Assembly: GCA_963728825.1 (NCBI GenBank)
Contig: CAVSLA010000004.1
Coordinates: 714,176 to 778,175, forward strand
Source of the DNA: an uncultured Acidobacteriota bacterium
Lineage (GTDB): Bacteria; Acidobacteriota; Vicinamibacteria; Vicinamibacterales; CAVVIG01
DNA: 64,000 nucleotides
Direction: 5' to 3'
In this document: positions 7,165 to 59,449 of the stretch, piece after piece
How positions within the stretch are numbered: the stretch's first letter is position 1
Layout: each line of letters opens with the position of its first letter
Translations under genes and position numbers: made by a program
Notes under the pieces: model-generated
Told to the model about the DNA's origin: nothing
Database searches by the model: none
The model's input: only the letters and a program-made list of their open reading frames with translations

Positions 7165-7186
7165 GGCGGGTCCAAAAGGACCCGCC
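7165..7186. terminator. Perfect 9-bp stem hairpin between convergent genes (candidate bidirectional terminator)
   Basis: ggcgggtcc-aaaa-ggacccgcc lies between the stop at 7157 (+) and the stop at 7187 (-). Confidence 0.6.
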
Positions 7187-8011: not shown

Positions 8012-8070
8012 ACCACGAAAAGACTAGCCACGAAAACTCGAAAACACGAAACTCAGTCCGAAATCCGTCG
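8012..8070. repeat. CACGAAA-type short tandem array in a divergent intergenic region
   Basis: ccacgaaaagactagccacgaaaactcgaaaacacgaaactcagtccgaaatcc. A related array occurs at 12362-12410. Confidence 0.7.
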
Positions 8071-8077
8071 TCCACTC

Positions 8078-8744
8078 GTGAAACCACTCATCATCGCCAT
8101 CGACGGGCCCTCGGGCGCCGGTAAAGGCACCGTGGCCCGAGCTGTCGCCGCCGAGCTTGGCTATCGCCACGTCGACAGCGGCGCGATGTACCGGGCGGTC
8201 GGGTGGAAGGCGCTGCGCGAGGGCGTCGCTCTCGACGACGAGCGCGCGCTTGCGACGATGGCCGAGAGTCACGCGATCGAAGTCGGCGCGCGACCGCGTG
8301 ACGATCGACGGCGAAGACGTCACCCGCAGCCATCCGGACGCCTGAAATCGATCGCGCCGCGGCGGCGCGTCGCGCGTCTGCCGCAGGTGCGTGCGGTGCT
8401 CGTCGCGCGACAGCGCGAGATGGGGTTGGACGGCGGGATCGTGATGGAAGGCCGCGACATCGGCACGGTCGTGTTTCCCCGGGCCGACGTGAAGCTCTAT
8501 CTGGACGCGTCCGCCGAAGAGCGGGCGCGTCGGCGCGCCGCCGATCCGGCGCACTCGGGCGGACCAACCGCCGTCGCGGACGTGGCGACGCTCCTGACCG
8601 AACGCGATCGCCTCGACTCCACCCGGCCGACGTCGCCACTGTATCGTGCCGCCGACGCGATCGTCGTCGACACGACGGGAAAAGTCGGTTGATCTGGTGG
8701 TTGCCGAGGTCCTCGACGTCGTGCGAAAAGCCCTGACGCCCTGA
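8078..8744 (+). CDS. cmk: Cytidylate kinase, interrupted by about four single-base insertions
   Basis: VKPLIIAIDGPSGAGKGT (P-loop). The frame changes near 8291, 8328 and 8368, restoring ...DRVTIDGEDVTRAIRTPEIDRAAAAVARLPQV. After a further change near 8681 the C-terminus reads GKSVDLVVAEVLDVVRKALTP with a stop at 8742-8744. Confidence 0.8.
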
Positions 8745-8787
8745 GCCCTGAGCCCTAAGCCCTAACCCTCTGAGCCCTGAGCCCTAC
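8730..8787. repeat. GCCCTGA/GAGCCCT heptamer tandem array between convergent genes
   Basis: gccctga-c-gccctga-gccctga-gccctaa-gccctaa-ccctctga-gccctga-gccctac. It overlaps both flanking stop codons. Confidence 0.9.
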
Positions 8788-9377
8788 TTTCTCTCCTTGT
8801 AATCCTCCGCGGACGCCGGATCGAGCTCCCACCGATGCTTGTCGCGATCGGCCACCTTGTCGCTCGCGCGCAGCTCCTCGTTGTCCTGATACTCGATGCC
8901 GATCGCCTTGCCGATGTCGTCGACGACGTCCTGATCCGGGGTCGGGTTGTCGCCGCCTGGCGTTTCGTCGCCGCTGAAGTAGGCCTGCTCGAGATTGACG
9001 TCGACATCGCCGCCGGTGATGCCGCGCGTCATCGAGCCATGAACCTGACGGCTCTCCTCGAGCTCTGCCCGCCCGGTGCGCGCGGCCGAGCCATGGCGGT
9101 TCATGTCCAGCGACGAAGGTGGGGTCGGGATGCTGTCGCTCGAGCGTGCGGCGGGGACGGTTGAGGCGCGGCGTCTTGCCGGCGAGCGTCGGCGACTTCG
9201 CGTCGGGGAGCCGCCTTGCGGGCGGCCTTCGCGCCGCATCGCGGCTTTCGTGCCGTCTTGCAGTGGCCCTGCGACTTGGAGCCTTTTCGCGTCGTTTTTG
9301 CCGATCGCCGCGCCTTCGCGGCTTTCTTCGCGGGCCTTGGCCTTCCGCGCACCGCTCCTGGCCTTCCGTTTGGCCAT
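8784..9377 (-). CDS. Hypothetical protein with a basic N-terminus and a conserved acidic C-terminal domain (DUF6335-like by recollection)
   Basis: Start MAKRKARSGARKAKA preceded by GAAGGAG. C-terminus GITGGDVDVNLEQAYFSGDETPGGDNPTPDQDVVDDIGKAIGIEYQDNEELRASDKVADRDKHRWELDPASAEDY. Confidence 0.6.
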   Translation of the reverse strand: MAKRKARSGARKAKAREESREGAAIGKNDAKRLQVAGPLQDGTKAAMRREGRPQGGSPTRSRRRSPARRRASTVPAARSSDSIPTPPSSLDMNRHGSAARTGRAELEESRQVHGSMTRGITGGDVDVNLEQAYFSGDETPGGDNPTPDQDVVDDIGKAIGIEYQDNEELRASDKVADRDKHRWELDPASAEDYKERK

Positions 9378-9398
9378 CGTGCCACTCCTTCGGTTACC

Positions 9399-9428
9399 TT
9401 GACAGTTTAGCGATAAGTGTCGTACTCT
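9399..9428 (+). promoter_or_regulatory. Candidate sigma-70 promoter upstream of rpsA
   Basis: TTGACA (9399-9404), an 18-nt spacer, then TACTCT (9423-9428). The -10 element is weak. Confidence 0.3.
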
Positions 9429-9479
9429 CTGTTGCTTATCGGAATCCAGCAGGTCCATACAGAAGCCGCTGAAGCCGAA

Positions 9480-9650
9480 CTTGCGGGGCGTCGGCTCCCG
9501 CTCTCCACCCGCCGACAATCGATCGACCCATTCGACAAGCTCGAGGTCATTCTGAGCAACGTCGAAGGACGACACGAGGAGGACGCGCAAGGCATGGCGA
9601 AGGTCGAAGACGAGCACACTCCCGGTGCGGCCCGGGGCGGTGCAGGCACA
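9480..9650. repeat. Degenerate copy of the REP/MITE-like element
   Basis: 9521-9572 (gatcgacccattcgacaagctcgaggtcattctgagcaacgtcgaaggacga) closely matches 13674-13723 (atccgacccttcgacaagctcaaggtcgtcccgagcaacgtcgagggacga). Confidence 0.7.
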
Positions 9651-9720
9651 CTGGACCGCGAGGACCGCGCCGCCGATCGCGGCGGGTCTGAAAGCCCTGC
9701 GGCGGGACGACGACGAACAC

Positions 9721-11389
9721 ATGGACCCCACGGAGTTCGAGAGTCTCCTGAAGGCCTACAATAACAGCTTCCAAAACATCGCGGAAGGCGAGGTCGTCAA
9801 GGGACGGTCCTCAAGGTCACGCCCTCTGAAGTGATCGTCGACGTCGGCTACAAGTCGGAAGGCATCATTCCGATCGACGAATTCCTCGACGAGACCGGCC
9901 AGGTCACCGTCGAGGCCGGCGACATCGTCGACGTCCTCCTCGAGCGCACCGAAGATCGCGAAGGCTACGTCGTCCTCTCGCGCGAAAAAGCCGAGAAGAT
10001 GAAGATCTGGGACGAGGTCGAGAAGGCCTATGCCGATCGCAAGGTCGTCATCGGCCGGGTCATCGAGCGGATCAAGGGCGGCCTGGCGGTCGACATCGGC
10101 GTCCGCGCCTTTCTTCCCGGCTCGCAGATTGACGTTCGTCCGGTCCGCAACCTCGACGCCCTGCGCGGCCAGGAGCTGCGGATGCGCGTCATCAAGGTCA
10201 ACAAGAAGCGCGGCAATATCGTGCTGTCCCGCAAGGCGCTGCTCGAGGAGGAGAACGCCGAGAAGAAGAAGCACACGCTCGAGACGCTGGCCGAGGGCAA
10301 GGTGCTCAAGGGCGTCGTCAAGAACATCACCGACTACGGGGCGTTCATCGACCTCGGCGGCATCGACGGCCTGCTGCACATCACCGACATGTCGTGGGGC
10401 CGCGTCGGCCATCCGTCCGAGCTGTTCAAGGTCAACGACGAGATCGACGTCATCGTCCTCAAGTACGACCCGTCGACCGAGCGGGTCTCGCTGGGCCACA
10501 AGCAGCTCATCACCGATCCGTGGGCCAACGTGATGGACCGCTATCCGGTCGGCGCACGCGTCGGCGGCAAGGTGGTCAGCCTGACCGACTACGGCGCCTT
10601 CGTGGAGCTCGAATCGGGGGTCGAAGGCCTGATCCACGTGTCCGAGATGTCGTGGAGCAAGCGCGTCAAGCACCCGTCGAAGATCCTCAACGTCGGCGAT
10701 ACCGGTCGACGCGATGGTGCTCGGCGTCGATCCGACGGCGCGGCGCATTTCGCTCGGCTTGAAGCAGGTCGAGAGCAATCCGTGGAACGACCTGGCCGAC
10801 AAGTATCCGGTCGGCTCGCGGATCCAGGGCAAGGTGCGCAACCTCACCGAGTTCGGCGCGTTCGTCGAGGTCGAGGAAGACATCGACGGGCTGATCCACA
10901 TCTCCGACATGTCGTGGAGCAAGCGCGTCAAGCATCCGTCGGAAATCCTGAAGAAGGGCGACGTGGTCGACGCGATGGTCCTGAACATCGACGCCGACAA
11001 CCAGCGGCTGTCGCTCGGCCTGAAGCAGCTGGCGACCGACATCTGGGACGATTTCTTCTCGCGCCATCACGTCGGCGACACGATCGAGGGCAAGGTCGTG
11101 CGGATGACGAACTTCGGCGCCTTCGTCGAGCTCGACGAAGGCATCGAGGGGCTGATTCACGTGTCGGAGTTCGACGACTCGCGGCACGCCGGCAAGGACG
11201 GAGAAGATCGATCTGAAGGTCGGCGAAACCTATCCGATGAAGATCATCAAGCTCGCGCCCGAGGAGCGGAAGATCGGGCTCTCGATTCGCGCGCTGAAGT
11301 CCGATGAGTTCCGCGCCGACTGGGAGAGCTACCAGGAGAGCGCCGGCGACGGCACGGCGACGCTGGGCGATCACTTTCGAAATCGGTAG
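9721..11389 (+). CDS. rpsA: 30S ribosomal protein S1, reading frame broken three times
   Basis: Repeated S1 domains (GEVVKG.VLKVTPSEVIVDVGYKSEGIIP..., GKVLKGVVKNITDYGAFIDLGG, GGKVVSLTDYGAFVELE, GKVRNLTEFGAFVEV, GKVVRMTNFGAFVEL). Frame changes lie near 9803 (a missing base), 10704 and 11200 (extra bases). Stop at 11387-11389. Confidence 0.9.
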
Positions 11390-11395
11390 CGCTAA

Positions 11396-11454
11396 AGGGC
11401 TAATGGCTCAGGGTGGGTGCAAGGTAGCCCTGAGCCCTCAGCCCTCGAGCCCTG
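11396..11454. repeat. AGGGCT... / AGCCCTG heptamer arrays in inverted orientation downstream of rpsA
   Basis: agggcta-atggctc-agggtgg... followed by agccctg-agccctc-agccctcg-agccctg. ggctcaggg (11405-11413) can pair with ccctgagcc (11428-11436). Confidence 0.85.
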
Positions 11455-11470
11455 ACAGGGAGTCACCGCA

Positions 11471-11818: not shown

Positions 11819-11827
11819 GCGCTCTGA

Positions 11828-11859
11828 AATTTACAATTTACCATTGTAAATTGTAAATT
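11828..11859. terminator. Perfect 14-bp hairpin built from two AATTTAC heptamers and their complement
   Basis: aatttacaatttac-catt-gtaaattgtaaatt directly downstream of the IHF-like gene. There is no T-tract, so terminator function is inferred. Confidence 0.5.
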
Positions 11860-11862
11860 CGT

Positions 11863-12396
11863 ATGGAGCGCCTCTGGTCTCCCTGGAGACTCGCCTACGT
11901 GACCGGCAAAACCGGCGACAAGGGGCGGTGCGTGTTCTGCGACGCGGCCGATCCGGCGCCCGACCCCTCCGGCCAGGACTCGCTGGTGCTGGTGCGCGGC
12001 GAGCGGTCATACGTCATCCTCAATCTGTATCCCTACAACAACGGCCATCTGATGGTCGTGCCGAACCGCCACGTCGCGTCGCTGGTCGACACGACGACTG
12101 ACGAGCTCGCCGAGATGATGGCGTTCACGCGCGACGCGGAGGTCGCGCTCAACGAAGGCTATCAGCCGCAGGGCATCAACGTCGGGATCAATCTCGGCCG
12201 GCCGGCCGGCGCCGGCATCATCGATCACATCCACATCCATCTCGTGCCGCGCTGGACTGGAGATACCAACTTCATGTCGGTCGTCGGCGGCACCCGGGTG
12301 CTGCCGGAGGACATGCAGGAAACCATCGCGCGGCTGCGACCGATTTTCGAACGGCTCAAGGAGCGCCACGAAAGCGCGAAGGCACGAAACGGCTAG
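11863..12396 (+). CDS. HIT family protein (Ap4A phosphorylase / nucleotidyltransferase-like)
   Basis: Histidine triad IIDHIHIHLVPRW and an N-terminal CVFC motif. The last codons run into a CACGAA-rich repeat. Confidence 0.8.
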   Translation: MERLWSPWRLAYVTGKTGDKGRCVFCDAADPAPDPSGQDSLVLVRGERSYVILNLYPYNNGHLMVVPNRHVASLVDTTTDELAEMMAFTRDAEVALNEGYQPQGINVGINLGRPAGAGIIDHIHIHLVPRWTGDTNFMSVVGGTRVLPEDMQETIARLRPIFERLKERHESAKARNG

Positions 12397-12412
12397 TCAC
12401 GACAACACGAGT

Positions 12413-13562
12413 ATGGTTCTCGAGCTGACATCGGAGCAGGTCGCCTTCAAGCAGTCGATCGAGCAGTTCGCGCGCGACGTGGTGGCGCCGCGGGCTGCCG
12501 CGATCGACGAGTCGGGCGAATTTCCGCTCGACGTCGTACGGGCCGCGGCCGGTCAGGGGCTGCTCGGCGCCACCATACCGAAGCGTGGGGCGGCGCCGGG
12601 CTGCGATTTCATGCGCTACGTCCTCGCCATCGAGGCGATTGCGGCGGCCAGCGCCACGGTGGCGGCGTCGCTGGTCGTTCACAATTCATTGGTCACCGAC
12701 GTGATTGCGCACGCCGGGCGCGCCCCGCACAAAGAGCAGTGGCTGCAGGAAGCTGGCGTCGCGGAGAGGTCGATCGGCGCGTTCGCGCTGTCCGAGCCCG
12801 AGGCGGGGACCGATGCCGCGAATCAGAAAACGAAGGCGGCCAGGACCTCGAAGGGCTACCGTATCACCGGCCGGAAGGTCTGGGTCGCCAACGCCGACGT
12901 CGCGGCCGTCGCGATCGTCTTTGCCTGCACGCGACCGGGTCTGCGCGGACAGGGCGTGACCGCCTTTCTCGTCCCGTTGGATACGCCGGGGATCACTCGA
13001 ACGGCGCGCGCCGACTCACTCGGCGTGCGCGGCCTGGGCTGCATGGATCTCGATCTCGACATCGAGGTGAGCGACGAGTCAGGTGCTCGGGTCGATCGAT
13101 CAGGGATTTCGACTGGCGATGTGGGCGCTTCAGGGCGGCCGCGTCGCCATCGCCGCGCAGGCGCTCGGCATCGGCGAGGCGGCCATCGGCGAGGCGATCG
13201 CGTACGCGAAGGAGCGCGAGAGCATTCGGGCAGCCGATTGCCAACTACCAGGCGATTCAGTGGATGCTCGCCGACATGGCGACCGAGCTGGAGGCCGCGC
13301 GGATGCTGACCTGGAAGGCCGCGGCCGTGCGAAGGAGCAGCAGGAGCGGATCACCGTCGAGGCGTCGATGGCCAAGCTCGCGGCCTCGGAAGCGGCGCAC
13401 AAGGCGGCCGACAAAGCGATGCAGATCCTCGCATCGGCCGGCTATCGCCGCGGTTCTGTCGCCGAACGCCTGTTCCGCGATGTCCGCGCCACCGAGATTT
13501 ATCAGGGCACGTCCGAAGCGCAGCGGATGATCATCGCAAACGGGATTCTGGCGGCCGGATAG
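12413..13562 (+). CDS. Acyl-CoA dehydrogenase, reading frame broken about three times
   Basis: ORF pieces 12413.., 12739.. and 13083.. join to give ...GAFALSEPEAGTDAANQ...AKERE|AFGQPIANYQAIQWMLADMATELEAARMLTWKAA|...EASMAKLAASEAAHKAADKAMQILASAGY...EIYQGTSEAQRMIIA. Changes lie near 13078, 13225 and 13330. Confidence 0.8.
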
Positions 13563-13603
13563 GGACAGAAGGGCTCAGGGCAGGGCTCAGGGCTCAGGGC
13601 TAA
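13561..13603. repeat. AGGGCTC heptamer tandem array
   Basis: agggaca-gaagggctc-agggc-agggctc-agggctc-agggcta, starting within the stop codon of the upstream gene. Confidence 0.9.
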
Positions 13604-13775
13604 GACGAGCGGAGGCGGAGGGCCCCCGCGCCAGAAAAGCGCCTGCGGCCATGCGAGCCCGAGGACGAGCAAATCCGACCCTTCGACAAGCTCAAGGTCG
13701 TCCCGAGCAACGTCGAGGGACGAGGGCGAGCATCATCGTAAGCACGCGCCGGGGTGGGGCCCCGGCGCGAGTGAA
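13604..13775. repeat. REP/MITE-like intergenic element, the fullest copy in the window
   Basis: The GC-rich ends gcggagggcccccgcgcc (13616-13632) and gcgccgggg-tgggg-ccccggcgc (13746-13768, 9-bp stem) are inverted relative to each other. The interior matches 9521-9572 and 5395-5414. No ORF. Confidence 0.7.
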
Positions 13776-13789
13776 TAAGGTCAATCATC

Positions 13790-14902
13790 ATGACCAAACC
13801 GATCAGCCGGCGTGATTTCGTCAAGAGCGCCAGCGTCGCATCTGCCGTCGCCGTCGCGCGGCCGGCATTCGGCCAGGCGCCAGCGGTTCGCACGTCGGGC
13901 GTGAGGCCTGTCGTCATTGCCTCCGCGAACGGTAACCGCTACCGGAACGGCGGCAGTCAAACCGCCGTTGAAAAGGCGTTCGCCGCGATGGTCGGCGGCG
14001 CTGACGTGCTCGATGCGCTCATCGCCGGCGTCAACATCGTCGAGCTCGATCCGGAAGACGCCAGCGTCGGGTATGGCGGGCGGCCCAACGCCGACGGCGT
14101 GGTGCAGTTGGACGCCTGCTGCATGCACGGCCCCCGGAAGCGGGCCGGCGGCGTCGCCTGCCTGGAAGGCGTCCGGACACCGTCGAAGGTGGCGCAGCAC
14201 GTGATGGACGTCACGGATCACCATCTGCTGGTCGGACGCGACGCCCAGGCTTTTGCCCGCAACATGGGCCACGCCATCGAGGCCGACCTCAACACCGAAC
14301 GGTCGCGCACCCTCTGGCTCGAGTGGAAGCGACGCACCGATCCCGACCGTTACCTGGATCCAGCAAAGCGCGTGCAGGCCTGGCATGATGCCGGTCTGCA
14401 GATGGTGCGCGAGGGGCTGATCGACCCCGAACACTACTGGGGCACGATCAACTGCAACGGCATCAACGCGCGCGGCGAAATCTGCGGCGTGACCAGCACG
14501 AGCGGGCTCGCGTGGAAAATTCCAGGACGGGTCGGCGATTCGCCGATTCTGGGCGCCGGGCTCTACGTCGATGGTGAAGTCGGCGCCGCCGGCTCAACGG
14601 GTCGCGGCGAAGCGAACCTCTACGCGCTCTGCTCGTTCCTGATTGTCGAAGAGATGCGCCGCGGTTCGCATCCAAAGGACGCGGCGCTCGTGGCGCTGCG
14701 CCGTGTCCAGAAGAACACCGTCGAGCAGCGCCTGCTCAATAAACGCGGGCTGCCGAACTTCGGCCTCAACTTCTACGCGCTCAACGCCAAGGGCGAATTC
14801 GCCGGTGTGTCGATGTACGCGTCGACCTTCGCCATCTGCACCGAAAACGGAGCGGAGACGCGCAACACCGAACCGCTTCTGCCGGGACAGGCGGACCAAT
14901 AA
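13790..14902 (+). CDS. Ntn-hydrolase asparaginase / glycosylasparaginase family protein with a Tat signal
   Basis: MTKPISRRDFVKSASVASAVAVARPAFG (twin-arginine signal) and GVTSTSGLAWKIPGRVGDSPILGAGLYVD. Confidence 0.8.
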   Translation: MTKPISRRDFVKSASVASAVAVARPAFGQAPAVRTSGVRPVVIASANGNRYRNGGSQTAVEKAFAAMVGGADVLDALIAGVNIVELDPEDASVGYGGRPNADGVVQLDACCMHGPRKRAGGVACLEGVRTPSKVAQHVMDVTDHHLLVGRDAQAFARNMGHAIEADLNTERSRTLWLEWKRRTDPDRYLDPAKRVQAWHDAGLQMVREGLIDPEHYWGTINCNGINARGEICGVTSTSGLAWKIPGRVGDSPILGAGLYVDGEVGAAGSTGRGEANLYALCSFLIVEEMRRGSHPKDAALVALRRVQKNTVEQRLLNKRGLPNFGLNFYALNAKGEFAGVSMYASTFAICTENGAETRNTEPLLPGQADQ

Positions 14903-14906
14903 ATCA

Positions 14907-14989
14907 GAATTGGTGAATTGGAGTGTTGGAGAGTTGGTGAATGAAGAACTCACCAACTCACCAACTCACCAGACTCACCCGCCAATTAC
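14907..14989. repeat. 8-bp tandem array TTGGTGAA/TTGGAGWG followed by the inverted array CTCACCAA
   Basis: aattggtg-aattggag-tgttggag-agttggtg-aatgaaga then actcacca-actcacca-actcacca-gactcacc, between convergent genes. The right end overlaps the corrected stop of the acyl-CoA dehydrogenase (14986). Confidence 0.9.
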
Positions 14990-16160
14990 CCTAGCATCTG
15001 CTTTGCGATTGTCTGCAGCTGCAGGTTGCTGGTCCCCTCGTAGATCTGTCCGATCTTTGCGTCGCGAAACAGCTTTTCGACAGGATAGTCCTTCACGAAC
15101 CCATAGCCTCCGAATAGATTGACGGCCAGCGAAGTGGTCGCGCTCGGCGACCTCCGACGAGAAGAGCTTGCACATGGCGGCTTCGGTCAGGAAAGGCGTG
15201 GCCGGCATCACGCAGACGAGCCGCTTCGTAGACCATCAAACGGGCGGCCTGCAGGTCGGTGGCAGCGCGAGCAATCTGATGCTGGACCGCCTGAAAGTCG
15301 GCGATCGGCTTGCCGAACTGACGACGTTCGCGAGTGTATCTGATGGTGTGATCGAGCGCGCCGTGCGCCAGACCGACCATCTGCGCACCGATGCCGATCC
15401 GTCCCTCGTTCAGCGTCTCGATCGCGACCTTGTAGCCTTTGCCGACTTCACCGAGGACATTGGCCCGCGGTACGCGGCAATCCTCGAGCAGCAGCTCGCA
15501 GGTGCTGCTGGCGCGGATGCCGAGCTTGTCTTCCTTCTTGCCGACCGAGAAGCCCGCGAAGCCGCGTTCGACCAGAAAGGCCGTGATGCCCCGGTAGCCG
15601 GCGTCCGGGTTGGCATTGGCGAAGACGATGAAGAGGTCGGCCTCCGCCGCATTGGTGATCCACAACTTCCGGCCGGTAATCGACCAATGGTCGCCCCGGT
15701 CCACGGCCCGCGTGGCCATCGCGAACGCGTCGCTGCCGGAGCCGGCCTCCGACAAGGCGTAGGCGCCGAGCGCTGCGCTCGCCAGCTTCGGCAGATAGCG
15801 CTGCTTGATTTCGTCGCTGCCGTAGCGCAGCAGCGCGTTGATGAACAGCGTGTTCTGCACGTCCACACAGACACCGACCGACGGGTCGACCCTGGAGAAC
15901 GCCTCGACCGCCAGCACCGCATGGAAGAACGTCGCGCCGCCTCCGCCGAACGACTCCGGGATCTCGATCGCCATGACGCCCAGCTCGAACAGTCGATCGA
16001 TCAGGGCGCGCGGCATCTTGGCCTGCTCGTCCATTTGACGCGCCAGCGGCCGGACTTCGCGGTCGGCGAACTGATACATTCCGTCGTAGAACAGCCGCTC
16101 GTCGTCGGACAGAACCGACAGCGGTGATCGCGCCATCTCGGTGGTCTGCATGAGCCGCAT
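14986..16160 (-). CDS. Acyl-CoA dehydrogenase, reading frame broken twice near the 3' end
   Basis: ORF 15093..16238 carries ...[15 protein letters not shown]...[39 protein letters not shown]. After changes near 15200 and 15140 the C-terminus reads [69 protein letters not shown], with a stop at 14986-14988. Confidence 0.8.
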
Positions 16161-16201
16161 TGTAGGCCCCTGCGCCAGGGTTTTGCGTCTAATATAGGAA
16201 C

Positions 16202-18251
16202 ATGGCTGGCGTTCGCACTCGTCTGGGCGTGCTGGCATTGGCGTGCGGCGTCACCGGGGCGCGTGCTCGCCGGACAGAATCAGCCGGCGCCGGCCGCTGC
16301 CGATCAGCAGCCGGCAACCGATCACGCAGCCCGACCTTCAAGGGCGGCATCAGTTTCGTGCGGGTCGACGTCATCGCCTCGAGCAAGGACGGCTCGGCGA
16401 TCGCCGATCTGCAGCAAGGCGACTTCGAAGTCACCGAGGACGGCAAGCCGCAGAAGATCGAGACCTTCCGCTTCATCGAGCTCGACGGCGGTCTGATGGA
16501 GACCGGCGGCAAGCCGGCGCGCCAGATCCGCACCGATGCCGACGAGCAGAATGAAGCCGCCCGCGACGACGTGCGGTTGTTCGCCTTTTTCCTCGACGAC
16601 TACCACGTCCGCCGCGAATCGAGCCTCGCCAGCCGCCAGGAGATCTCGCGCTTCATCGAGACGCAGCTCGGTCCGACCGACATGGTCGCGATCATGTACC
16701 CGCTGCAACCGATTGCCTCGATCCAATTCACCCGTAATCACGACAGCGATCCGTCGCGGCATCGAACAGTTCGTCGGGCGCAAGTTCGAGTACGAGCCAA
16801 AAAACGACTACGAGCAGAAGATCGCCTATTACCCGACCGAAACGGTCGAGCGCGTCCGCAACCAGATCTCGCTGTCGGCGCTCGAATCGCTCGTCTCGCA
16901 CATGGGAGGGCTGAAGGAAGGACGCAAGACGCTGGTGCTGGTCAGCGAGGGCTACAGCAACATGCTGCCGCCGCAGATGCGAAACCGCTCGGCCGCAATC
17001 GGCGATGTCGACAACCCGTCGCGTAACGATCCCAACGCCGGCCTCGACAACCCGAACGAGTTTCGCGCCCAGATGGCCGCTTCGTTCGATATGCAGGAGG
17101 ATCTGCGGCTCATCTACCAGGCGGCGAATCGCAACAACGTGTCGATGTACCCCGTGGATCCGCGCGGCCTCGCGACGAGCGAGTTCAGCATTGCCGAAAA
17201 CATCAACTCGCGGACCGATCGCGACTACCTCAATTCGACGATGGACACCCTGCGGGTGATGGCGGAGCAGACCGACGGCCGGGCGATTCTGAACCGCAAC
17301 AATCTCACGCTCGCCATGAAGCAGATCGTGCGTGACGCCAGCGCCTACTATCTGCTGGGCTACAACTCTGCGGCAGCGCCGACCGATGGCAAGTTCCACG
17401 AGATCCGCGTGCGGATCAAGCGTCCTGGCGTGCAGGTGCGTGCCCGGCGCGGGTACTGGGCCGTTTCACCCGCCGACATCGAGCGGATGACGAGGGCGGC
17501 GGCCGCGCCGGTGACGCCCAAACCGGTGGAGAACGCCCTCGCCGCGCTGGCCTATCCCACCCGCATGCGGGTGATTCGCACCTGGATTGGTGCCGAGCGC
17601 GGCGAGAACGGCAAGACGCGCGTCACGTTCGTCTGGGAGCCGAATCGGCCGCCTGGGCTGCGCGACGGTGGGCAGCCGGTCCGGGTCGCGGTCACCGCGG
17701 TCGGGACCGATGGCGCTCCGTACTTCCGTGGACGTGTGCCGGCCACGGCGCCGACGAGCACGACACCGGCAGCCCCAGCCGCCGGCGCACGCGTGACGTT
17801 CGAGGCGCCACCGGGAGCGCTGCAGCTTCGGCTGTCGGTGGAGGGCGCCGACGCGCAGGTGCTCGACGCGGAGACCCGCGAGCTGACGATTCCCGACCTC
17901 ACCGCAACCGGCGTGCTGTTCGGCACGCCGGCCATCTACCGCGGGCGGACCGTGCGCGACATCCAGCAGTTCAGAGCCAACCGCGACGCGTCACCAACCG
18001 CGATCCGCGAGTTTCAGCGAACCGATCGGCTGCTGGTCCGTGCGCCAGCGTACGACAACGCTTCGTCGGTCGCTGCCCGGGTCTTGAATCGCTCGGGTCA
18101 AACGATCACCGAGCTGCCGGTGTCGACGGAAGGCAGTGAGGTGGTCTTCGAGATGGTGCTCGCTTCACTGCCGGCCGGCGAGTACATCCTCGAACTCAGC
18201 GCCGCGGGCAGCGACACGAAAGAGCTGATCGCGTTCCGCATCACCGGTTAG
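16202..18251 (+). CDS. VWFA-related acidobacterial-type protein, paralogue 1, one frame break near 16745
   Basis: PTFKGGISFVRVDVIASSKDGSAIADLQQGDFEVTEDGKPQKIETF...RLFAFFLDDYHV... joins ORF 16536..18251 (...GRKTLVLVSEGYSN...YPVDPRGL...GKFHEIRVRIKRPGVQVRARRGYWA). Confidence 0.75.
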
Positions 18252-20098: not shown

Positions 20099-20360
20099 AC
20101 CGTCTCATCCGAGGCGATCTTGTCCCTGCGCGCGCGTCTGTTTCCCGAGGTCGCGAAGGGCGCCTCCAGGCCAGGTCAGACAATTTCGTAGAATGAGACC
20201 ACTCAGTACCGACAAACATGTAGGTTAGCGGTTCCGCGGCGGCCGTCGCGCCGCAGCGGATCGCGAAATACCTAATGGATTGCCGGCACCGTCCGCTGCT
20301 GCGACCTGGACCCTCATTTGCTTCACCAGTCGGCCAGGAACGCGTCTCCCCGGGACCCTT

Positions 20361-21933
<1,573 letters not shown>

Positions 21934-21941
21934 AGACCTGT

Positions 21942-22125
21942 CAGGGCAAAGGGCAAAGGGCACGCAGGGCACGGTTCAGCGGCACACGGGCAGAGGGCTA
22001 CGTAGGTTCGGCCCTGCGACACGAATGTCCCGCGGCAGTCTAGGGACGACAACTTTGTCGGTTCAGCCTGAAAGCCCTCTGTTCTTAGCCTCTGCCCTCG
22101 GCTCTGCATGCCCTCAGGCCCTGCC
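21942..22125. repeat. AGGGCAA/AGGGCAC heptamer array and an inverted GCCCT-type array flanking a ~65-bp unique core
   Basis: Left: cagggca-aagggca-aagggca-cgcagggca...gagggct. Right: aagccctct...agcctctgccctcggctctgcatgccctcaggccctgcc. Located between convergent genes. Confidence 0.85.
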
Positions 22126-22133
22126 TAGGGGCT

Positions 22134-23392
22134 TTACGCGTACATCCCGCGGATACGCGTCACCGTGGCCACGCGGTTGATCGCCACGAGGTAGGCGGCG
22201 GTCCGCATGTCGACCTTGTAACGGAGCGCGGTCTGCAGCACCGCGTTGTAGGCCTCGCACATCTTGGCTTCCAGCCGCTCGTTGACTTCCTTCTCCGTCC
22301 AGAAGTAGCCGTGGCGGTCCTGGACCCACTCGAAGTAGGACGTCGTCACGCCGCCGGCGTTCGCCAGGATGTCGGGCACGACGAAGACGCCGCGCTCGTG
22401 CAGGTGGCGATGCGCGTCGGGCGTGGTCGGGCCGTTGGCGCCTTCGACGAGCATCGCGGGCGCGGATGCCGGGCGCGTTGTCCATCGTGATCTGGTTCTC
22501 GAGCGCCGCGGGGATCAGCACGTCGACTTCGAGCTTGAACAGCGTCCTCGTTGCTGATCGGCTCGCCGCCGGCGAAGCCGGCGACGGTCTTGTGCTGCCG
22601 ACGGACGTGCTCGCTCGAGCTTCGCGATATCGAGGCCCTTCGCGTTGTAGACGCCGCCTTTCCAGTCGGTGACCGCGACGACCTTGGCGCCGGCTTCGCG
22701 CGAGCAGCTGCGGCGCTGATCGAGCCGACGTTGCCGAAGCCCTGCACGGCGACGGTCGCGCCCTTGATGTCGAATCCGAGATGTTTCGCTGATTCGCGGG
22801 CGACGATCATCACGCCGCGGCCGGTCGCCTCGCGGCGGCCGAGCGATCCGCCGAGCTCGAGCGGCTTGCCGGTCACGACGCCGGTTTCGGTGTGGCCGAC
22901 GTGCATGCTGTAGGTGTCCATCACCCACGCCATGATCTGTTCGTTGGTGTTGACGTCGGGGGCGGGGACGTCCTTCTCGGGCCCGATGGCGTCGATGATC
23001 TCGGCGACATAGCGCCGGGTCAGCGCCTCGAGCTCGCGGCGCGACATGCGGGTCGGGTCGCAGATGATGCCGCCCTTGCCGCCGCCGAATGGAATGTGCG
23101 CGACCGCGCACTTCCACGTCATCCACGCCGCCAGCGCCGTGACCTCGTCGAGCGTGACGCCCGGGTGGTAGCGGATGCCGCCCTTCGCCGGCCCGAGCGT
23201 GATGTTGTACTGGACGCGGTAGCCGGTGAACACTTCGATCTCGCCGTTGTCCATCTGCACCGGACACGAGACGGTGATCTGGCGCTTGGGATGCGTGAGG
23301 ATCTTCCAGATTCCCGCCTCGAGGTTGAGCAGGCGCGCCGCTCCGTCGAACTCCTGGAGCATCGCGCTGAAGACCGATCCGTGTGTGGCCAT
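22134..23392 (-). CDS. gdhA: Glutamate dehydrogenase, reading frame broken about four times
   Basis: [11 protein letters not shown] and PFGGGKGG in ORF 22346..23392. The C-terminal half is recovered from three other frames ([22 protein letters not shown]; [19 protein letters not shown]; [45 protein letters not shown]). Changes lie near 22715, 22620, 22535 and 22455. Confidence 0.85.
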
Positions 23393-23745: not shown

Positions 23746-25358
23746 GTGAAAACGGCCGAGAAGCCACCCACCGAGCGGGCAGGCGTCGTTCACGACCATT
23801 TCCGGCCGGACCGATCAAGCCGCTCTACACGATCGCCGATGACCTCGCCGGGATCGACACCGGCGAGCCCGGCGCGCTTTCCCTATACCCGCGGCATCCA
23901 CGCGACCGGCTACCGCGGCAAGCTGTGGACGATGCGGCAGTTTGCCGGGTTCGGGACGCCGGAGGACACCAATCGCCGCTGCAAGCAGCTCCTCGCCGCC
24001 GGCGGCACCGGCCTGAGCATCGCCTTCGATCTGCCGACGCTGATGGGCCGCGATCCCGATCACCCGCTCTCGCTCGGCGAGGTCGGCAAGTGCGGCGTCA
24101 ACGTCACGTCGCTCGCCGACATGGAGACGCTCTTCGAGGGCATCCCGCTCGGCGAGATCACGACGTCGATGACGATCAATTCGCCGGCGGCGATGATCTT
24201 CGCGATGTATCTGGTCGTCGCGGAAGGCAGGGCGCCAGCTGGCAGACGCTGTCGGGGACGATTCAGAACGACATCCTCAAGGAATTCATCGCGCAGAAGG
24301 AGTACATCTTCCCGCCGCGGCCGTCGATGCGGCTGGTCACCGACGTCTTCGGCTTCTGCGCTCGCGAAGTGCCGCGCTGGAACACCATCTCGGTGAGCGG
24401 CTACCACATCCGCGAAGCGGGCGCGACCGCGCTGCAGGAGCTCGCGTTCACATTGCGCGACGGCTTCGAGTACGTGCAGTGGGGCATCGACGCCGGGCTC
24501 GACGTCGACGATTTCGTGCCGCGGATGTCGTTTTTCTTCAATGCCCACAGCGATTTCTTCGAGGAGATCGCCAAGTACCGGGCCGCCCGCAGCCTGTGGG
24601 CGCGGGCGATGCGCGATCGCTTCGGCTCCCGCAACGAGCGTTCGTGGAAGCTGCGCTTCCACACCCAGACCGCCGGCGTCTCGCTGACGGCGCAGCAGCC
24701 GTATAACAACGTCGTCCGCACCGCGCTGCAGGCGCTGTCGGCGGTTCTCGGCGGGACCAACTCCCTCCACACCAACTCGCTCGACGAGGCGCTGGCGCTG
24801 CCGACCGCCGCAGCCGCCACCCTCGCGCTGCGCACGCAGCAGGTGCTGGCGCACGAAACCGGCGTCACCGGCGTCGATCGATCCGTTGGGCGGCTCCTAT
24901 TTCGTCGAACGGCTCACCAGGGACATGGAAGACGAGGCGCTAGACCCTCTTCGATCAGATCGATCGCATGGGCGGCATGGTCGCGGCGATCGAACAGGGC
25001 TTCCCGCAGCAGGAGATCGCCGAGAGCGCCTACCGCTTCCAGCAGGCGGTCGAGCGCCAGTGAAAAGGTCATCGTCGGCGTCAACGACTTCGTCCAGGAG
25101 GACGATCCGCCGATCGAGATCCTCTACATCGACCAGTCGGCGGCCGACACCCAGGGCGAAAAAGTCGAGGCGTTGAAGAAGACGCGCGACGACGATCGCG
25201 TGCGCCGTTCGCTCGACCAGCTCCGACATGCCGCGCAAGGGCCCGACAACCTCATGATCCCGATTCTCGAGGCGGTGCGCGCCTACGCCACGCTTGGCGA
25301 GATGTGCGACGCGCTGCGCGAGGTGTGGGGGGAATATGAGGAAGTTCCGGTCATCTGA
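23746..25358 (+). CDS. Methylmalonyl-CoA mutase family, catalytic (large) subunit, frame broken about six times
   Basis: [84 protein letters not shown], ...[13 protein letters not shown]. Changes lie near 23812, 23873, 24228, 24876, 24945 and 25062. The start (GTG 23746) is uncertain. Confidence 0.85.
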
Positions 25359-25398
25359 AATTGCAGATGGCAAATTGCAGATGGCAGATTGCGATAGA
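25359..25398. repeat. 14-bp (2 x 7) tandem array AATTGCAGATGGCA
   Basis: aattgcagatggca-aattgcagatggca-gattgcgataga, between the large and B12-binding mutase subunit genes. Confidence 0.9.
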
Positions 25399-33725: not shown

Positions 33726-34985
33726 GTGACCGTGAGCCTGGCGCCTGGCAGCGAACTCCGGCTTCGCGTCGAGAAACCGGCCGCCGGCGGGTGGATGATC
33801 GCGCGCGCCAACGGTCAGGTGATCCTTGTCTCGGGCGCGATTCCAGGCGAGACGGTGGTGGCGCGCGTCGAGCGGACCAGCAAGGCGGTGGTCTACGCGC
33901 GAGTGGTCGGTGTCGACGAGGCGTCCCAGGACCGGCGGGATCCGTTCACCGATCCGCTGTGTGGTGGCTGCCTGTACGCGCACGTCGCCTATCCCCGTCA
34001 GCTCGAGATCAAGAGTCAGGTCATCGCCGACGCGTTCGGGCGGATCGCGCGCGTGCCCGTCCCGGCGCCGGTTGTCGTGGCCGCATCCCCCACTGCGGGC
34101 TACCGGATGCGCGCACGGCTGCACGTCCGTGGCCGCCGGATCGGATTCTTTCGCGAGGGCACCCACGATCTCTGCGATGCGCGCGCGACGCGTCAGCTCT
34201 TGCCGGCAACGACCGACGTCCTGGATCGCCTCGGTGCCGCGCTGCAGGCGACAGGCACCGATGTGATCCGCGAGGTCGAGGTTGCCGAAAACATCGACGC
34301 CTCGCAGCGGGTCCTGAGTCTGGAAGCCGCTGCTTACCTCGATCCCCGCACGCTTGGCGCGCTGGCTGGAGACCGCGAGGTCAGCGGTGTGACCCTGGGG
34401 CAGATGCCGGTCACCGGGGATCCCTACGTGACGGACACCCTGCCGATCGAAGGGCACCAGTTCACGCTTCGTCGTCACGTCCAATCGTTTTTTCAGGCGA
34501 ACCGCTTTGTGCTCGGTCAGCTCGTCGAACACGTTGTCGGGCGCGTTCCGCGCGGGGCGGAGGTGGTGGACCTCTACGCCGGTGTCGGGCTCTTCTCGAT
34601 TGCCGCCGCACGCGCACGCGAGGCGCGCGTCGTGGCCGTCGAGGGCGACCGCGTGGCGGCGAGAGATCTGGCCGCCAACGCGAGCCAGGTCAGCGGGGCC
34701 GTGCAGATCGTTCACCAGCCGGTCGAGTCGTTCGTCCGGGTCGGCGAGCGAATAGTCGATCTGCTTATCGTCGATCCGCCGCGGACCGGGATGTCACGTG
34801 GGGCGCTCGATCGGGCGCTCGCCCTGCGTGCGCCGAAGGTCGTCTACGTGTCGTGCGACGTTGCCACGCTGGCGCGTGATGTCCGCCGTTTCGTCGACGC
34901 CGGCTATCGCCTCACCTCGCTCGACGCGTTCGACCTGTTTCCCAACACGCCGCATGTTGAGAGTGGGGCCATTCTCGAATCCTGA
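33726..34985 (+). CDS. 23S rRNA (uracil-5)-methyltransferase RlmD/TrmA family
   Basis: VVDLYAGVGLFSIAAA (SAM binding), DPPRTGM, VYVSCDVATLARDV, plus an N-terminal TRAM-like segment and a Cys cluster. Confidence 0.85.
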   Translation: MTVSLAPGSELRLRVEKPAAGGWMIARANGQVILVSGAIPGETVVARVERTSKAVVYARVVGVDEASQDRRDPFTDPLCGGCLYAHVAYPRQLEIKSQVIADAFGRIARVPVPAPVVVAASPTAGYRMRARLHVRGRRIGFFREGTHDLCDARATRQLLPATTDVLDRLGAALQATGTDVIREVEVAENIDASQRVLSLEAAAYLDPRTLGALAGDREVSGVTLGQMPVTGDPYVTDTLPIEGHQFTLRRHVQSFFQANRFVLGQLVEHVVGRVPRGAEVVDLYAGVGLFSIAAARAREARVVAVEGDRVAARDLAANASQVSGAVQIVHQPVESFVRVGERIVDLLIVDPPRTGMSRGALDRALALRAPKVVYVSCDVATLARDVRRFVDAGYRLTSLDAFDLFPNTPHVESGAILES

Positions 34986-35030
34986 GATTTCAGGATTTGA
35001 GGATTTGAGGATTTAAGGATTTGAGGATTT
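34984..35030. repeat. 8-bp tandem array AGGATTTG (5-6 copies) between convergent genes
   Basis: gagattt-caggattt-gaggattt-gaggattt-aaggattt-gaggattt. It begins in the rlmD-like stop codon and encodes the last codons and stop of the minus-strand amidotransferase. Confidence 0.9.
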
Positions 35031-35714
35031 GCCCGACGCTTCGAGGAAGCCCTCGAAGAGGGGACGGAACTCGCCCGTGCGCCAGAAGTTTTCCGGGTGC
35101 CACTGGACGCCCAGGCAGAAGCGGGCGCCAGGGTCTTCGATTGCCTCGATCACGCCGTCGGGCGCGGTGGCCGAGGCGCGGAACCCGGGTGCGAGCAGCT
35201 TGACCGCCTGATGGTGGCGGCTGTTGGCTTCGCAGGCGTCGGTGTCGCTGAGGCGCTCGCGCATCAGGCGCGCCAGGAGTGTGTCCTTGTCGAGCCACAC
35301 TTCGTGCGCAAGGTCGTACGGCTTGTGGGGCGGCACCGTCCAGCTGTGATCGAGCGCGCCTGCCACTTCGGTCGGAATGTCCTGCACGAGCGTTCCGCCG
35401 CAGGCCACGTTCAGGATCTGGATGCCGCGACAGATCGCGAAAATCGGCAGATTCCGCCGCCGCGCCTCGTTGATCAGCCCGATCTCGAACTCGTCGCGTG
35501 CGGGATCCACGTCCACCACGGACGGATGCGGCTGTTCTCCGTATCGCATCGGTGCGACATCTTCACCCCCGCTGAGCAGCAGGCCGCCAATCGATGAAAT
35601 GATGTCGCCGGCCGGCGTCCCCGGCTCGAGTACGCGGACCTCTCCGCCCACGTGAAGGACGGCCTGACGGTAGTCCTCGATTTTCTTGCACGCCGTTAGT
35701 CCGATGAGGGGCAT
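35013..35714 (-). CDS. Gamma-glutamyl-GABA hydrolase-like class I glutamine amidotransferase (peptidase C26)
   Basis: PIFAICRGIQILNVACGGTLVQDI and GVQWHPE. Confidence 0.85.
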   Translation of the reverse strand: MPLIGLTACKKIEDYRQAVLHVGGEVRVLEPGTPAGDIISSIGGLLLSGGEDVAPMRYGEQPHPSVVDVDPARDEFEIGLINEARRRNLPIFAICRGIQILNVACGGTLVQDIPTEVAGALDHSWTVPPHKPYDLAHEVWLDKDTLLARLMRERLSDTDACEANSRHHQAVKLLAPGFRASATAPDGVIEAIEDPGARFCLGVQWHPENFWRTGEFRPLFEGFLEASGKSSNP

Positions 35715-45599: not shown

Positions 45600-45621
45600 G
45601 CCGGGTCCTTTCGGACCCGGC
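45600..45621. terminator. 9-bp stem hairpin between convergent genes, same sequence family as 7165-7186
   Basis: gccgggtcc-tttc-ggacccggc, between the murJ stop (45586) and the response-regulator stop (45639). Confidence 0.6.
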
Positions 45622-52521: not shown

Positions 52522-52522
52522 A

Positions 52523-52714
52523 GATAGTCAGTAGTCGACAGACGACAGTCAACAGTCGACAGTACAGTTGCCCGGCGTTCGTGCCTAGTGTACCAGCCTC
52601 GCACCAGCCGTCTCACGACTTATCGACTGCTGCCGGCGTCCAATTACTCCCGACTACTGACTGTCGACAACCGACTGTCGACTGCTGACTGATGACTGAC
52701 GACTGTCCGACTAC
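52523..52714. repeat. GACAGTC-type heptamer array (52523-52567) and inverted CGACTGT/TGACTGA array (52616-52714) around a unique core
   Basis: Left: gatagtc-agtagtc-gacagac-gacagtc-aacagtc-gacagta. Right: cgactac-tgactgt-cgacaac-cgactgt-cgactgc-tgactga-tgactga-cgactgt-ccgactac. It fills the whole gap between two minus-strand genes. Confidence 0.9.
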
Positions 52715-54654: not shown

Positions 54655-54749
54655 GGCTGGCAAGGGGAGCGACACGAAACCCATAACAACCGCCTCGTGC
54701 GACGAGGGGCAGGACTGGCTGGCATTCGAATTATAGCCTCCTTTGACCC

Positions 54750-54815
54750 GTCTCCGACACGTCTCCGACACAGCTCCGACACGTCTCCGACACAGCTCCG
54801 ATCTCCCTCCGATCG
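54750..54815. repeat. 11-bp tandem array GTCTCCGACAC (about 6 copies) in a divergent promoter region
   Basis: gtctccgacac-gtctccgacac-agctccgacac-gtctccgacac-agctccgatct-ccctccgatcg. Confidence 0.9.
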
Positions 54816-54875: not shown

Positions 54876-54904
54876 TTGACAATAACGCACTCAGCTTTTA
54901 TCCT
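54876..54904 (+). promoter_or_regulatory. Candidate sigma-70 promoter of dnaK
   Basis: TTGACA (54876-54881), a 17-nt spacer, then TATCCT (54899-54904), about 49 nt upstream of the dnaK ATG. Confidence 0.45.
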
Positions 54905-59363: not shown

Positions 59364-59365
59364 AG

Positions 59366-59448
59366 GATTGCAAATTGCAAATTACAAATTGCAAACGGTA
59401 ATCTGAATCGACCGTCAATCTGCAATCTGCAATCTGCGATTTGCAATT
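59366..59448. repeat. Two adjacent heptamer arrays (ATTGCAA type, then AATCTGC type)
   Basis: gattgca-aattgca-aattaca-aattgca-aacggta-atctgaa...aatctgc-aatctgc-aatctgc-gatttgc-aattaat. It ends at the hemW ATG. Confidence 0.9.
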
Positions 59449-59449
59449 A

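Follow-up and report, generated by a model that had tools for sequence, protein, structure and literature searches.

Intergenic tandem arrays of mostly 7-nt units, often paired as inverted arms, in Acidobacteriota

Short-period tandem arrays occupy intergenic spacers in a 64-kb stretch of DNA from an uncultured Acidobacteriota bacterium (contig CAVSLA010000004.1), the whole of which is called the window here. We took up 13 array sites from a preliminary description of this DNA, among them a two-armed element between convergent genes at 14906-14989, the focal element of this study. The best explanation of our findings is that these sites are a sample of a genome-wide and lineage-wide population of short-unit arrays in Acidobacteriota, most of them with 7-nt units. 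The structural description of the arrays, taken alone, is held here with high confidence. For their origin and persistence we propose that arrays born by slippage were copied to inverted partners and kept as stem-loops at transcript 3' ends that lack a U-tract; with the inferred function included, we regard the chances of this account as evenly balanced.

Arrays exceed chance and peak at a period of 7 nt

Arrays were called with Tandem Repeats Finder (TRF) and paired arms with an inverted-repeat finder, the gene map combined GC3-based gene calls with Pfam matches, and RNA folding energies were scored as z values against shuffles. TRF recovered all 13 arrays where they had been seen by eye, those at 8012-8070 and 12362-12410 as weak and degenerate repeats (Table 1). 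With a period of at least 5 that is not a multiple of 3, and with at least 2.5 copies, the window holds 14 arrays, whereas dinucleotide shuffles gave 1.23 on average (maximum 4), and its ~4.4 kb of non-coding DNA holds 11 against 0.06 expected. All window arrays lie in or at intergenic spacers; nine of the 14 have a period of 7, and the others have periods of 8, 11, or 14.

The arrays were also reproduced in independent assemblies. A total of 160 loci were fetched from genome and metagenome collections, and ~150 non-redundant Acidobacteriota loci (1.9 Mb), including Illumina k141 and NODE contigs as well as long-read metagenome-assembled genomes (MAGs), were used for all pooled statistics. Since the same arrays are found in many short-read assemblies, they are not assembly artefacts. 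By period, the pooled loci contain 258 arrays of 7 nt, 14 of 6 nt, 54 of 8 nt, 34 of 10 nt, and 5 of 11 nt. Grouped by unit, the 251 period-7 arrays whose consensus unit is 7 nt long make up 124 canonical classes, and the units are richer in A and T than the genome (GC 0.44 vs 0.58). Densities reach ~135 period-7 arrays and ~200 non-triplet arrays per Mb, being lower in loci with a GC content of at least 0.68; the latter figure would extrapolate to ~1,000 arrays for a genome of ~5 Mb, and ~20% of intergenic spacers carry an array. Period-7 arrays are largely excluded from coding DNA (174 non-coding vs 30 coding), whereas arrays with triplet-multiple periods show the opposite distribution (225 coding vs 50 non-coding).

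These results support the earlier view that one architecture is shared irrespective of unit sequence. The accompanying claim that each site has its own unit did not hold: AGGGCTN/AGCCCTG is shared by the sites at 8729, 11388, and 13563 and recurs as the variant AGGGCAA at 21942, CACGAAA occurs at two sites, and an ATTGCA core occurs at two. The 64 kb of the window nevertheless contain at least eight unit classes, AGGGCTN being present at four sites and CACGAAA at two, a count that bears on the comparison with repeats of few families made below.

A sharp peak at period 7 regardless of unit sequence would be expected if the arrays were a periodic scaffold for a protein that covers ~7 nt of single-stranded RNA or DNA (such as a cold-shock, S1, or KH-type protein) or for a nucleoid protein on duplex DNA, the hairpin being secondary. 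Direct repeats of heptamers are bound by CspB, one protein to each heptamer, as reviewed in PMC4679880. The single-arm arrays, which do not fold, likewise call for an explanation. However, the number of unit classes, both in the pooled loci and in the window, argues against sequence-specific recognition, there is no candidate protein, and a scaffold does not predict the strong excess of inverted partners described next. We consider this explanation improbable.

Paired arms are inverted and G-first

For 137 of 289 arrays, a search within 250 nt yielded a partner that matches the reverse complement at 12 or more of 14 bases, while the control searches returned 2 reversed, 5 complemented, and 7 direct partners. 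Among 96 adjacent pairs of arrays with the same period, 70 are inverted and none is direct, with a median inter-arm gap of 30 nt. Because inverted arms are complementary, a long imperfect hairpin can form on either strand, or in a transcript made in either direction. The long hairpins of the preliminary description were borne out in part: inverted arms were confirmed and six of the 13 sites fold significantly, but the other seven are single-armed and fold no better than chance.

The order of the arms is not random. In the pooled loci the G-rich arm is 5' in 44 inverted pairs and the C-rich arm in 9, with the same preference in every spacer class; when each unit class is counted once, the ratio is 37:7 (p = 5e-6). 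Examples of G-first pairs are found at 9856-9998 of locus L080, 13886-14003 of L022, and 7609-7699 of L001, and at 11388, 14906, and 21942 of the window. As the arms are complementary, G-first is true of both strands at once. No A/T bias was detected between paired arms (27:26), and no G/C bias of single-arm arrays on the sense strand (27:24). We found no explanation for the G-first rule, which is not predicted by a purely neutral process of slippage and copying.

Another candidate structure is the G-quadruplex, of DNA or RNA, which could be active in the G3N4 subset, that is, the AGGGCTN arrays at 8729, 11388, 13563, and 21942. Each of these arrays offers four or more G3 tracts separated by 4-nt loops, and at 8729 it is the sense strand that is G-rich. 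Oligonucleotides built to this design adopt G-quadruplexes in vitro (PMC4692102). Most units of the lineage, however, contain no G runs (e.g., ACCACTG, AATCGTG, AATTACG, AATTTAC). Architecture and polarity hold without G runs, so G-quadruplexes cannot be the general explanation, and we consider an activity in the G3N4 subset itself improbable.

The geometry of inverted arms around a central region of 20-100 nt also resembles that of REPINs and MITEs (miniature inverted-repeat transposable elements), and the arrays could happen to be the terminal inverted repeats of such mobile elements. BLAST searches with the central regions between the arms at 21942, 52523, and 59366 found no other copy in the window or the 160 loci, and the reading was rejected on this absence of dispersed copies. 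Units also differ between sites, and no transposase gene linked to an array was seen; target-site duplications were not searched for. A mobile origin is therefore very unlikely.

Arrays lie past stop codons

In the pooled loci the median distance from stop codon to array is 9 nt (lower quartile -0.5) and that from array to the next start codon is 29 nt, 60 arrays being nearer to a stop codon and 36 nearer to a start codon. The association with gene 3' ends that had been described for the window holds, although the count is 12 of 13 sites adjoining a stop codon rather than 11 of 13. Twelve of the 13 start or end within ~10 nt of a stop codon, and several contain one. Four sites lie between convergent genes (13563, 14906, 21942, and 34984), eight between co-directional genes, and one between divergent genes (54745). 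According to crude gene calls, hairpin-type arrays occupy 19 of 134 convergent spacers (14.2%), 55 of 538 co-directional spacers (10.2%), and 7 of 155 divergent spacers (4.5%), the difference between convergent and divergent spacers being significant (p = 0.006). Single-arm arrays occupy 9.0%, 10.6%, and 4.5% of these classes, respectively.

This placement bears on whether the arrays are phase-variable contingency loci, in which the copy number switches the expression of a neighboring gene. Phase variation classically acts on simple sequence repeats (PMC12721329, PMC11868660). Yet the arrays follow the stops of housekeeping genes such as rpsA, hup, and those for acyl-CoA dehydrogenases, and are not in promoters or 5' coding regions. 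Copy number is also constant across fetched contigs 93-99.7% identical, for the few heptamer arrays mappable between them. A role in phase variation is thus highly improbable.

We compared the arrays with intrinsic terminators. A stable hairpin downstream of a gene is present at six sites (z -2.1 to -7.1) and absent from the seven single-arm sites, and no array was called as having a U-tract 3' of the stem. A scan of window positions 1-60000 for hairpin-plus-T-run terminators returned 35 matches against ~33 expected from shuffles, i.e., no excess; arrays and plain 3' hairpins are free of matches, nearly all of which fall inside genes as judged by their coordinates. A search of the window against Rfam gave no structured-RNA match at gathering thresholds.

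Two other convergent spacers of the window contain plain GC hairpins (7168-7183 and 45603-45618) with the common core GGGTCC-N4-GGACCC; thus, periodic and plain hairpins hold equivalent positions. This core occurs twice in the window against 0.23 expected and in none of the 160 related loci, and it may represent a small palindrome family or just convergent terminator design.

Units are replaced while positions stay occupied

The genomes closest to the window are Acidobacteriota MAGs, with asparaginase identities of 87% (L002) and 83% (L001), and many Pyrinomonadaceae, Blastocatellia, and Vicinamibacterales show ~70% identity in this protein. No conspecific contigs were found in the metagenome scan, the best match having 83% amino-acid identity, and a search for records with exactly the same asparaginase protein gave none. 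Three loci, L001, L002, and L003, are collinear with window positions 3-24 kb at ~76-83% nucleotide identity and allowed orthologous spacers to be compared. The rpsA-hup spacer carries a periodic hairpin in all four genomes, with AGGGCTN arms in the window, AATTAGG arms in L001 and L002, and GGCTCGA-type arms in L003. In the hup-HIT spacer, the window, L001, and L002 share the AATTTAC hairpin, and L003 has a hairpin of four GTCATCG copies. Between the NtrC-like and glutamate dehydrogenase genes, AGGGCAA arms (window) correspond to GTCAGTA/GACTAC arms (L001) and to a short plain hairpin (L003). Such spacers, in which a periodic hairpin of another unit or a plain GC hairpin takes the same place, fit the earlier suggestion of a structural role or a common generating mechanism.

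Retention of the unit depends on flank identity: units are mostly the same at 93% or more, give a mixed picture at 87-92%, and differ or are missing in most cases near 80%. In pairs of loci that are 93-96% identical, exact array lengths are kept with few substitutions, one hairpin differing at 4 of 164 positions as counted by eye; therefore, the arrays are not hypervariable.

A repeat of another type did vary. A 22-23-nt tandem unit with the palindrome GGTGTCTGACACC spans 213 vs 303 nt at 16768-16950 of L079 and in the matching stretch of L160, two contigs that are 99.9% identical. This is the sole copy-number difference among the mappable sites in close pairs, and its type is unlike that of the heptamer arrays.

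Proposed origin and persistence, and the case against it

We propose that the arrays would arise by replication slippage, with a preference for 7 nt as in other bacteria, and that the inverted partner would be copied by intrastrand template switching or fold-back synthesis. Arrays would be purged from coding sequence and depleted from spacers that contain only promoters. Their persistence past stop codons would reflect a stem-loop that acts as a U-tract-less structure at the transcript 3' end, either as a terminator or as a barrier to 3' exonucleases, and between convergent genes such a stem-loop would act both ways. Units would be replaced by ~15-20% nucleotide divergence while the position stays occupied.

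Several results weigh against this account. About half of all arrays, including the seven in the window, are single-armed and fold like shuffles, so a hairpin role cannot explain those arrays. Folding in co-directional spacers shows no asymmetry between sense and antisense (24:23, p = 0.65), and hence nothing indicates selection on G-U pairs in RNA. The lengths of paired arms are not correlated (rho 0.13). Divergent spacers are depleted of arrays by just 2- to 3-fold, and this with the same crude gene calls. Positional persistence, at ~57% against a base rate of ~20%, is an estimate from few mapped sites and modest, and it could just reflect spacers that tolerate insertions. Finally, plain perfect hairpins of array-free spacers have no polarity (37:32), which rules out the G-first rule as a general property of terminators.

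The main rival explanation is that the arrays are functionless mutational by-products, that is, neutral or slightly deleterious results of heptamer slippage and inverted duplication that form everywhere, are purged from coding sequence and promoters, and accumulate past stop codons with no function there. Unit turnover at roughly the pace of neutral divergence is in line with this, as are the unfolded single arms, the missing sense/antisense asymmetry, and the uncorrelated arm lengths. Protection of promoters explains the depletion from divergent spacers equally well, and slippage related to the polymerase footprint has been proposed for the 7-nt preference (Mrazek et al., 2007, as relayed in PMC4679880). 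On the other hand, neutrality predicts a 50:50 polarity and not the observed 37:7, exact lengths are kept at 4-7% divergence by arrays that are not hypermutable, and orthologous spacers stay occupied past unit replacement, with one lineage swapping in a plain hairpin. We judge this rival to be possible but rather unlikely.

Retention of the hairpins as 3'-end structures is the reading that we prefer. A stronger version of it, which we put forward as speculative and unlikely, is that paired arrays are a dedicated signal independent of sequence, namely a bidirectional U-tract-less terminator or RNA-processing element that depends on the 7-nt register and the arm order, or on a periodic nucleic-acid-binding factor. 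If this were true, the same logic would also underlie the heptamer repeats of Xanthomonas and cyanobacteria, and it would explain a period of 7 and a single polarity across phyla with unrelated units.

Relation to described repeats

The preliminary description did not recognize the arrays as a described class of feature. They do belong to one, as heptanucleotide intergenic repeats, the short tandemly repeated repetitive sequences (STRRs) of cyanobacteria, and the paired GGGAATC arrays of Xanthomonas have all been reported; here the class appears in a new phylum with unusually diverse units. Our literature search found no published account of such arrays in Acidobacteria.

The Xanthomonas GGGAATC arrays (Rehm et al., 2015, PMC4692102) number ~186 in Xcc, are 89-93% intergenic, and lie on average 28 nt from the upstream open reading frame (ORF); some overlap stop codons and most are transcribed. 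X. campestris and X. axonopodis each have 70-75 opposite-strand pairs per genome "in convergent orientation" that are capable of forming stem-loops, placement between convergent genes (16%) is twice as common as between divergent ones (7-8%), and arrays occupy the same intergenic positions in related species with varying length and sequence (PMC4692102). Acidobacterial pairs are similar in being inverted (70 of 96, and six window sites), G-first, nearer to the upstream stop codon, and more frequent in convergent than in divergent spacers; the "convergent orientation" in Xanthomonas is, as read here, the same G-first polarity. G-quadruplexes were proposed for Xanthomonas GGGAATC and Nostoc GGGGATT. 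Xanthomonas has in essence a single unit family that could form G-quadruplexes; in contrast, the acidobacterial units spread over 124 classes, most of which lack G runs, and only AGGGCTN is of the G3N4 type in the window. The density of ~200 per Mb in this different phylum is ~5-fold above that in Xanthomonas (~37 per Mb, assuming a genome of ~5 Mb).

Similar repeats are known more widely. Long simple sequence repeats (LSSRs) with 5-11-nt units were described in many prokaryotes, with heptanucleotides as the most abundant class, non-triplet units confined to non-coding DNA, a phylogenetically patchy occurrence, and a proposed origin by polymerase-footprint slippage (Mrazek et al., 2007, as relayed in PMC4679880 and PMC4692102). 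As far as these later papers convey, the acidobacterial arrays are like LSSRs in exceeding chance, in being most frequent at period 7, and in keeping non-triplet units out of coding sequence. Cyanobacterial STRRs comprise a few genome-wide heptamer families and are rarely paired in Nostoc PCC 7120 (PMC4692102). In the P6b region of the Nostoc tRNA-Leu(UAA) intron, both hairpin arms consist of 7-nt repeats, and the unrelated motifs TDNGATT and NNTGAGT, which give the same secondary structure, have repeatedly replaced each other (PMC4476775). Unit replacement at the rpsA-hup and hup-HIT spacers resembles this case, but P6b is one locus in a group I intron, whereas the acidobacterial pattern involves hundreds of 3'-UTR-like (untranslated region) sites and many units. 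In marine Beggiatoaceae, cyanobacteria, and Bacteroidetes, direct repeats of TAACTGA are intergenic, numerous, and so far without an assigned function; they have a single unit, are mostly located directly upstream of start codons, and include one inverted case in 170 sets (PMC4679880). The acidobacterial arrays share the intergenic position, heptameric unit, and abundance of these repeats but have many units, lie near stop codons, and are often inverted.

Comparison can also be made with a class of palindromic elements. The repetitive extragenic palindromes of enterobacteria and pseudomonads (REP/BIME/REPIN) are intergenic, often at 3' ends, and form inverted doublets that fold into hairpins; they act as 3' exonuclease barriers that stabilize the upstream mRNA and as weak terminators. 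Each genome has one or a few conserved REP sequences of 20-40 nt, which are spread by RAYT transposases and are not tandem heptamers. The acidobacterial arrays resemble REP/BIME/REPIN in being intergenic, at 3' ends, and inverted, but they share no element sequence in the window and the 160 loci, where neither the central regions nor whole elements recur.

Heptanucleotide intergenic repeats were reported in cyanobacteria in 1990 and in prokaryotes broadly in 2007, with no accepted function. More than 100 unrelated units separate the architecture (period 7, pairing, polarity, and stop proximity) from the sequence, which argues against a G-quadruplex or a sequence-specific binder as a general explanation. 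Dense arrays, together with unit replacement and plain-hairpin swaps at fixed positions in syntenic genomes, make this lineage an informative case, in which the period-7 peak irrespective of unit and the G-first polarity most deserve further work. If the hairpins mark transcript ends, they would aid the annotation of operons and terminators in a major soil phylum without canonical terminators. As the arrays overlap stop codons, they can shift gene ends, and they are difficult for assemblers and for long-read polishing.

The focal element and its neighbors

The left arm of the focal element (14906-14942) contains 4.6 copies of an 8-nt unit (AATTGGTG/AATTGGAG/TGTTGGAG/AGTTGGTG) according to TRF. 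It is followed by the loop AATGAAGA and by a right arm (14947-14979) of 4.0 copies of ACTCACCA, after which comes a degenerate unit that holds the stop codon of the minus-strand gene. The inverted arms 14911-14935 and 14947-14971 comprise 25 nt with 84% complementarity, and the region 14903-14992 folds with -33.7 kcal/mol (z -5.4) on the plus strand and -40.0 kcal/mol (z -4.9) on the minus strand. The asparaginase stop codon TAA (14900-14902) is 4 nt ahead of the array, and the stop of the acyl-CoA dehydrogenase gene (TTA on the plus strand, 14986-14988) is within the last degenerate unit; therefore, the element fills the 83-nt spacer between two convergent stop codons. The frame of the acyl-CoA dehydrogenase gene is broken near 15093-15122, and its C-terminus was matched to the L001 orthologue. 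In orthologous spacers, only one arm (ACTCACCA/ACTCTCCA) is present in L002, the plain GC hairpin GCGGGCCtttaGGCCCGC stands in L001, and ~650 nt of other sequence take this place in L003.

Table 1. Positions of the focal element, its flanking genes, and the other array sites of the window
Feature	Position	Strand	Evidence
Focal element, two-armed 8-nt-unit array between convergent genes	14906-14989		TRF, inverted-repeat finder, fold
Asparaginase-family gene	13790-14902	+	Pfam Asparaginase_2, E 1e-52
Acyl-CoA dehydrogenase gene, convergent with the asparaginase gene	14986-16238	-	Pfam; C-terminal domain truncated, 84/150
Degenerate single-arm CACGAAA(A) array	8012-8070		TRF 8029-8051, period 8, 2.9 copies, score 39; fold z +0.5
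Single-arm AGCCCTG array	8729-8786		TRF period 7, 7.9 copies, score 75-97; fold z -2.6
AGGGCTN-then-AGCCCTN periodic hairpin	11388-11455		TRF 11426-11455, period 7, 4.1 copies; fold -37.5 kcal/mol
AATTTAC x2 then GTAAATT x2	11828-11859		TRF 11843-11859, period 7, 2.4 copies; fold z -5.4 (11822-11865)
Weak degenerate single-arm CACGAAA-type array	12362-12410		TRF 12367-12389, period 8, 2.9 copies, 73% matches, score 32
Single-arm AGGGCTC array (G3N4)	13563-13601		TRF 13570-13601, period 7, 4.9 copies; fold z -1.3, +0.9
Long degenerate AGGGCAA-type hairpin	21942-22125		TRF 21943-21962 and 22093-22124; fold -96.3 kcal/mol, z -3.7 (21934-22133)
Single-arm AATTGCAGATGGCA array	25358-25398		TRF 25358-25392, 14-nt unit x2.5 or 7-nt unit x3.9; fold z -1.8
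Single-arm AGGATTTG array	34984-35031		TRF 34986-35031, period 8, 5.8 copies, score 78; fold z ~0 and -1.3
Long GACAGTC-type hairpin	52523-52716		TRF 52533-52563 and 52650-52716, period 7, 4.4 and 7.6 copies
11-nt-unit GTCTCCGACAC array	54745-54815		TRF 54745-54801, 5.2 copies, score 79-100
ATTGCAA x4 then CAATCTG x4.6 hairpin	59366-59448		TRF 59367-59395 and 59416-59447, period 7

The other window sites

Five of the remaining sites are two-armed hairpins. The hairpin at 11388 starts 6 nt past the stop of rpsA (TAG, 11387-11389), the plus-strand, frameshifted gene for ribosomal protein S1, and lies upstream of the HU gene; its arms (11388-11413 and 11428-11453) comprise 26 nt with 81% complementarity (z -2.1 for 11385-11460). 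Past the HU stop codon by 9 nt and ahead of the HIT gene, the AATTTAC hairpin forms the perfect 14-bp stem described earlier, as confirmed with the inverted-repeat finder, around a 4-nt loop. The long hairpin at 21942 has a central region of ~100 nt and lies between the convergent NtrC-like and glutamate dehydrogenase genes. That at 52523, with a central region of ~85 nt and a fold of -97.3 kcal/mol (z -6.6, 52522-52716), overlaps the stop of a minus-strand DUF6600/FecR-like gene and is upstream of the PBP1A gene, likewise on the minus strand. The hairpin at 59366 (z -5.3 on the plus and -7.1 on the minus strand for 59360-59452) starts 3 nt past the stop of an IstB/DnaC-like ATPase gene and ahead of a radical SAM gene, as assigned with Pfam.

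Most single-arm arrays also adjoin gene ends. Upstream of a pseudouridine synthase gene, the degenerate array at 8012-8070 sits at the 3' end of a hypothetical gene on the minus strand; at the orthologous site L001 has a CGAAAA-type array too, and L002 has an ATTTAAG/AATCTTA hairpin instead. The array at 8729 overlaps the stop of a DUF6335 gene (8784-9731, minus strand) and, read on that strand, the sense strand, is of the G3N4 type. The array at 12362 overlaps the HIT stop codon (12394-12396) and does not fold (z +1.0), while L001, L002, and L003 have two-armed hairpins there. At 13563, the array fills a 37-nt spacer from the stop codon of an acyl-CoA dehydrogenase gene (13560-13562) to that of an ORF at 13600-13917 (minus strand) in the mechanical ORF list, which has no Pfam match and was passed over by the GC3-based gene call. 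The array at 25358 is directly past the stop of the methylmalonyl-CoA mutase gene, within an operon and ahead of a B12-binding subunit gene (Pfam). The array at 34984 separates convergent genes, and a variant unit within it creates the stop (TTA, 35013-35015) of the peptidase C26 gene on the minus strand.

The 11-nt-unit array at 54745, in the spacer from which a DUF6600/FecR-like gene and dnaK diverge, is probably an element of a different kind from the 3' hairpins. Its period, close to one helical turn, points to phased regulator sites and not to a 3' hairpin.

Minor observations

Five genes of the window are split across reading frames, with Pfam domains truncated or continued in another frame: rpsA (9831-11389), the acyl-CoA dehydrogenase genes (12413-13562 and 14986-16238), the NtrC-like sigma-54 activator gene (20275-21933), and the glutamate dehydrogenase gene (22134-23392). 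These frameshifts suggest a long-read assembly, and since the closest MAGs are long-read bins, long-read indel error is the most likely cause, with pseudogenes as the alternative.

A perfect TATAAT is present on the minus strand (54733-54738) beside the 54745 array, and TTGACA-17-TATCCT precedes dnaK (54876-54904). The AATTTAC hairpin (11828-11859) matches a sigma-70-like TTTACA-18-TAAATT pattern on both strands; from its letters it might double as a promoter, or the match may be a coincidence of an AT-rich palindrome.

Arrays also extend into coding DNA, as the last codons of the ORF at 8024-8554 (minus strand) are array units (8024-8051). Because arrays lie within gene ends both here and at 34984-35031, array growth can reshape protein C-termini.

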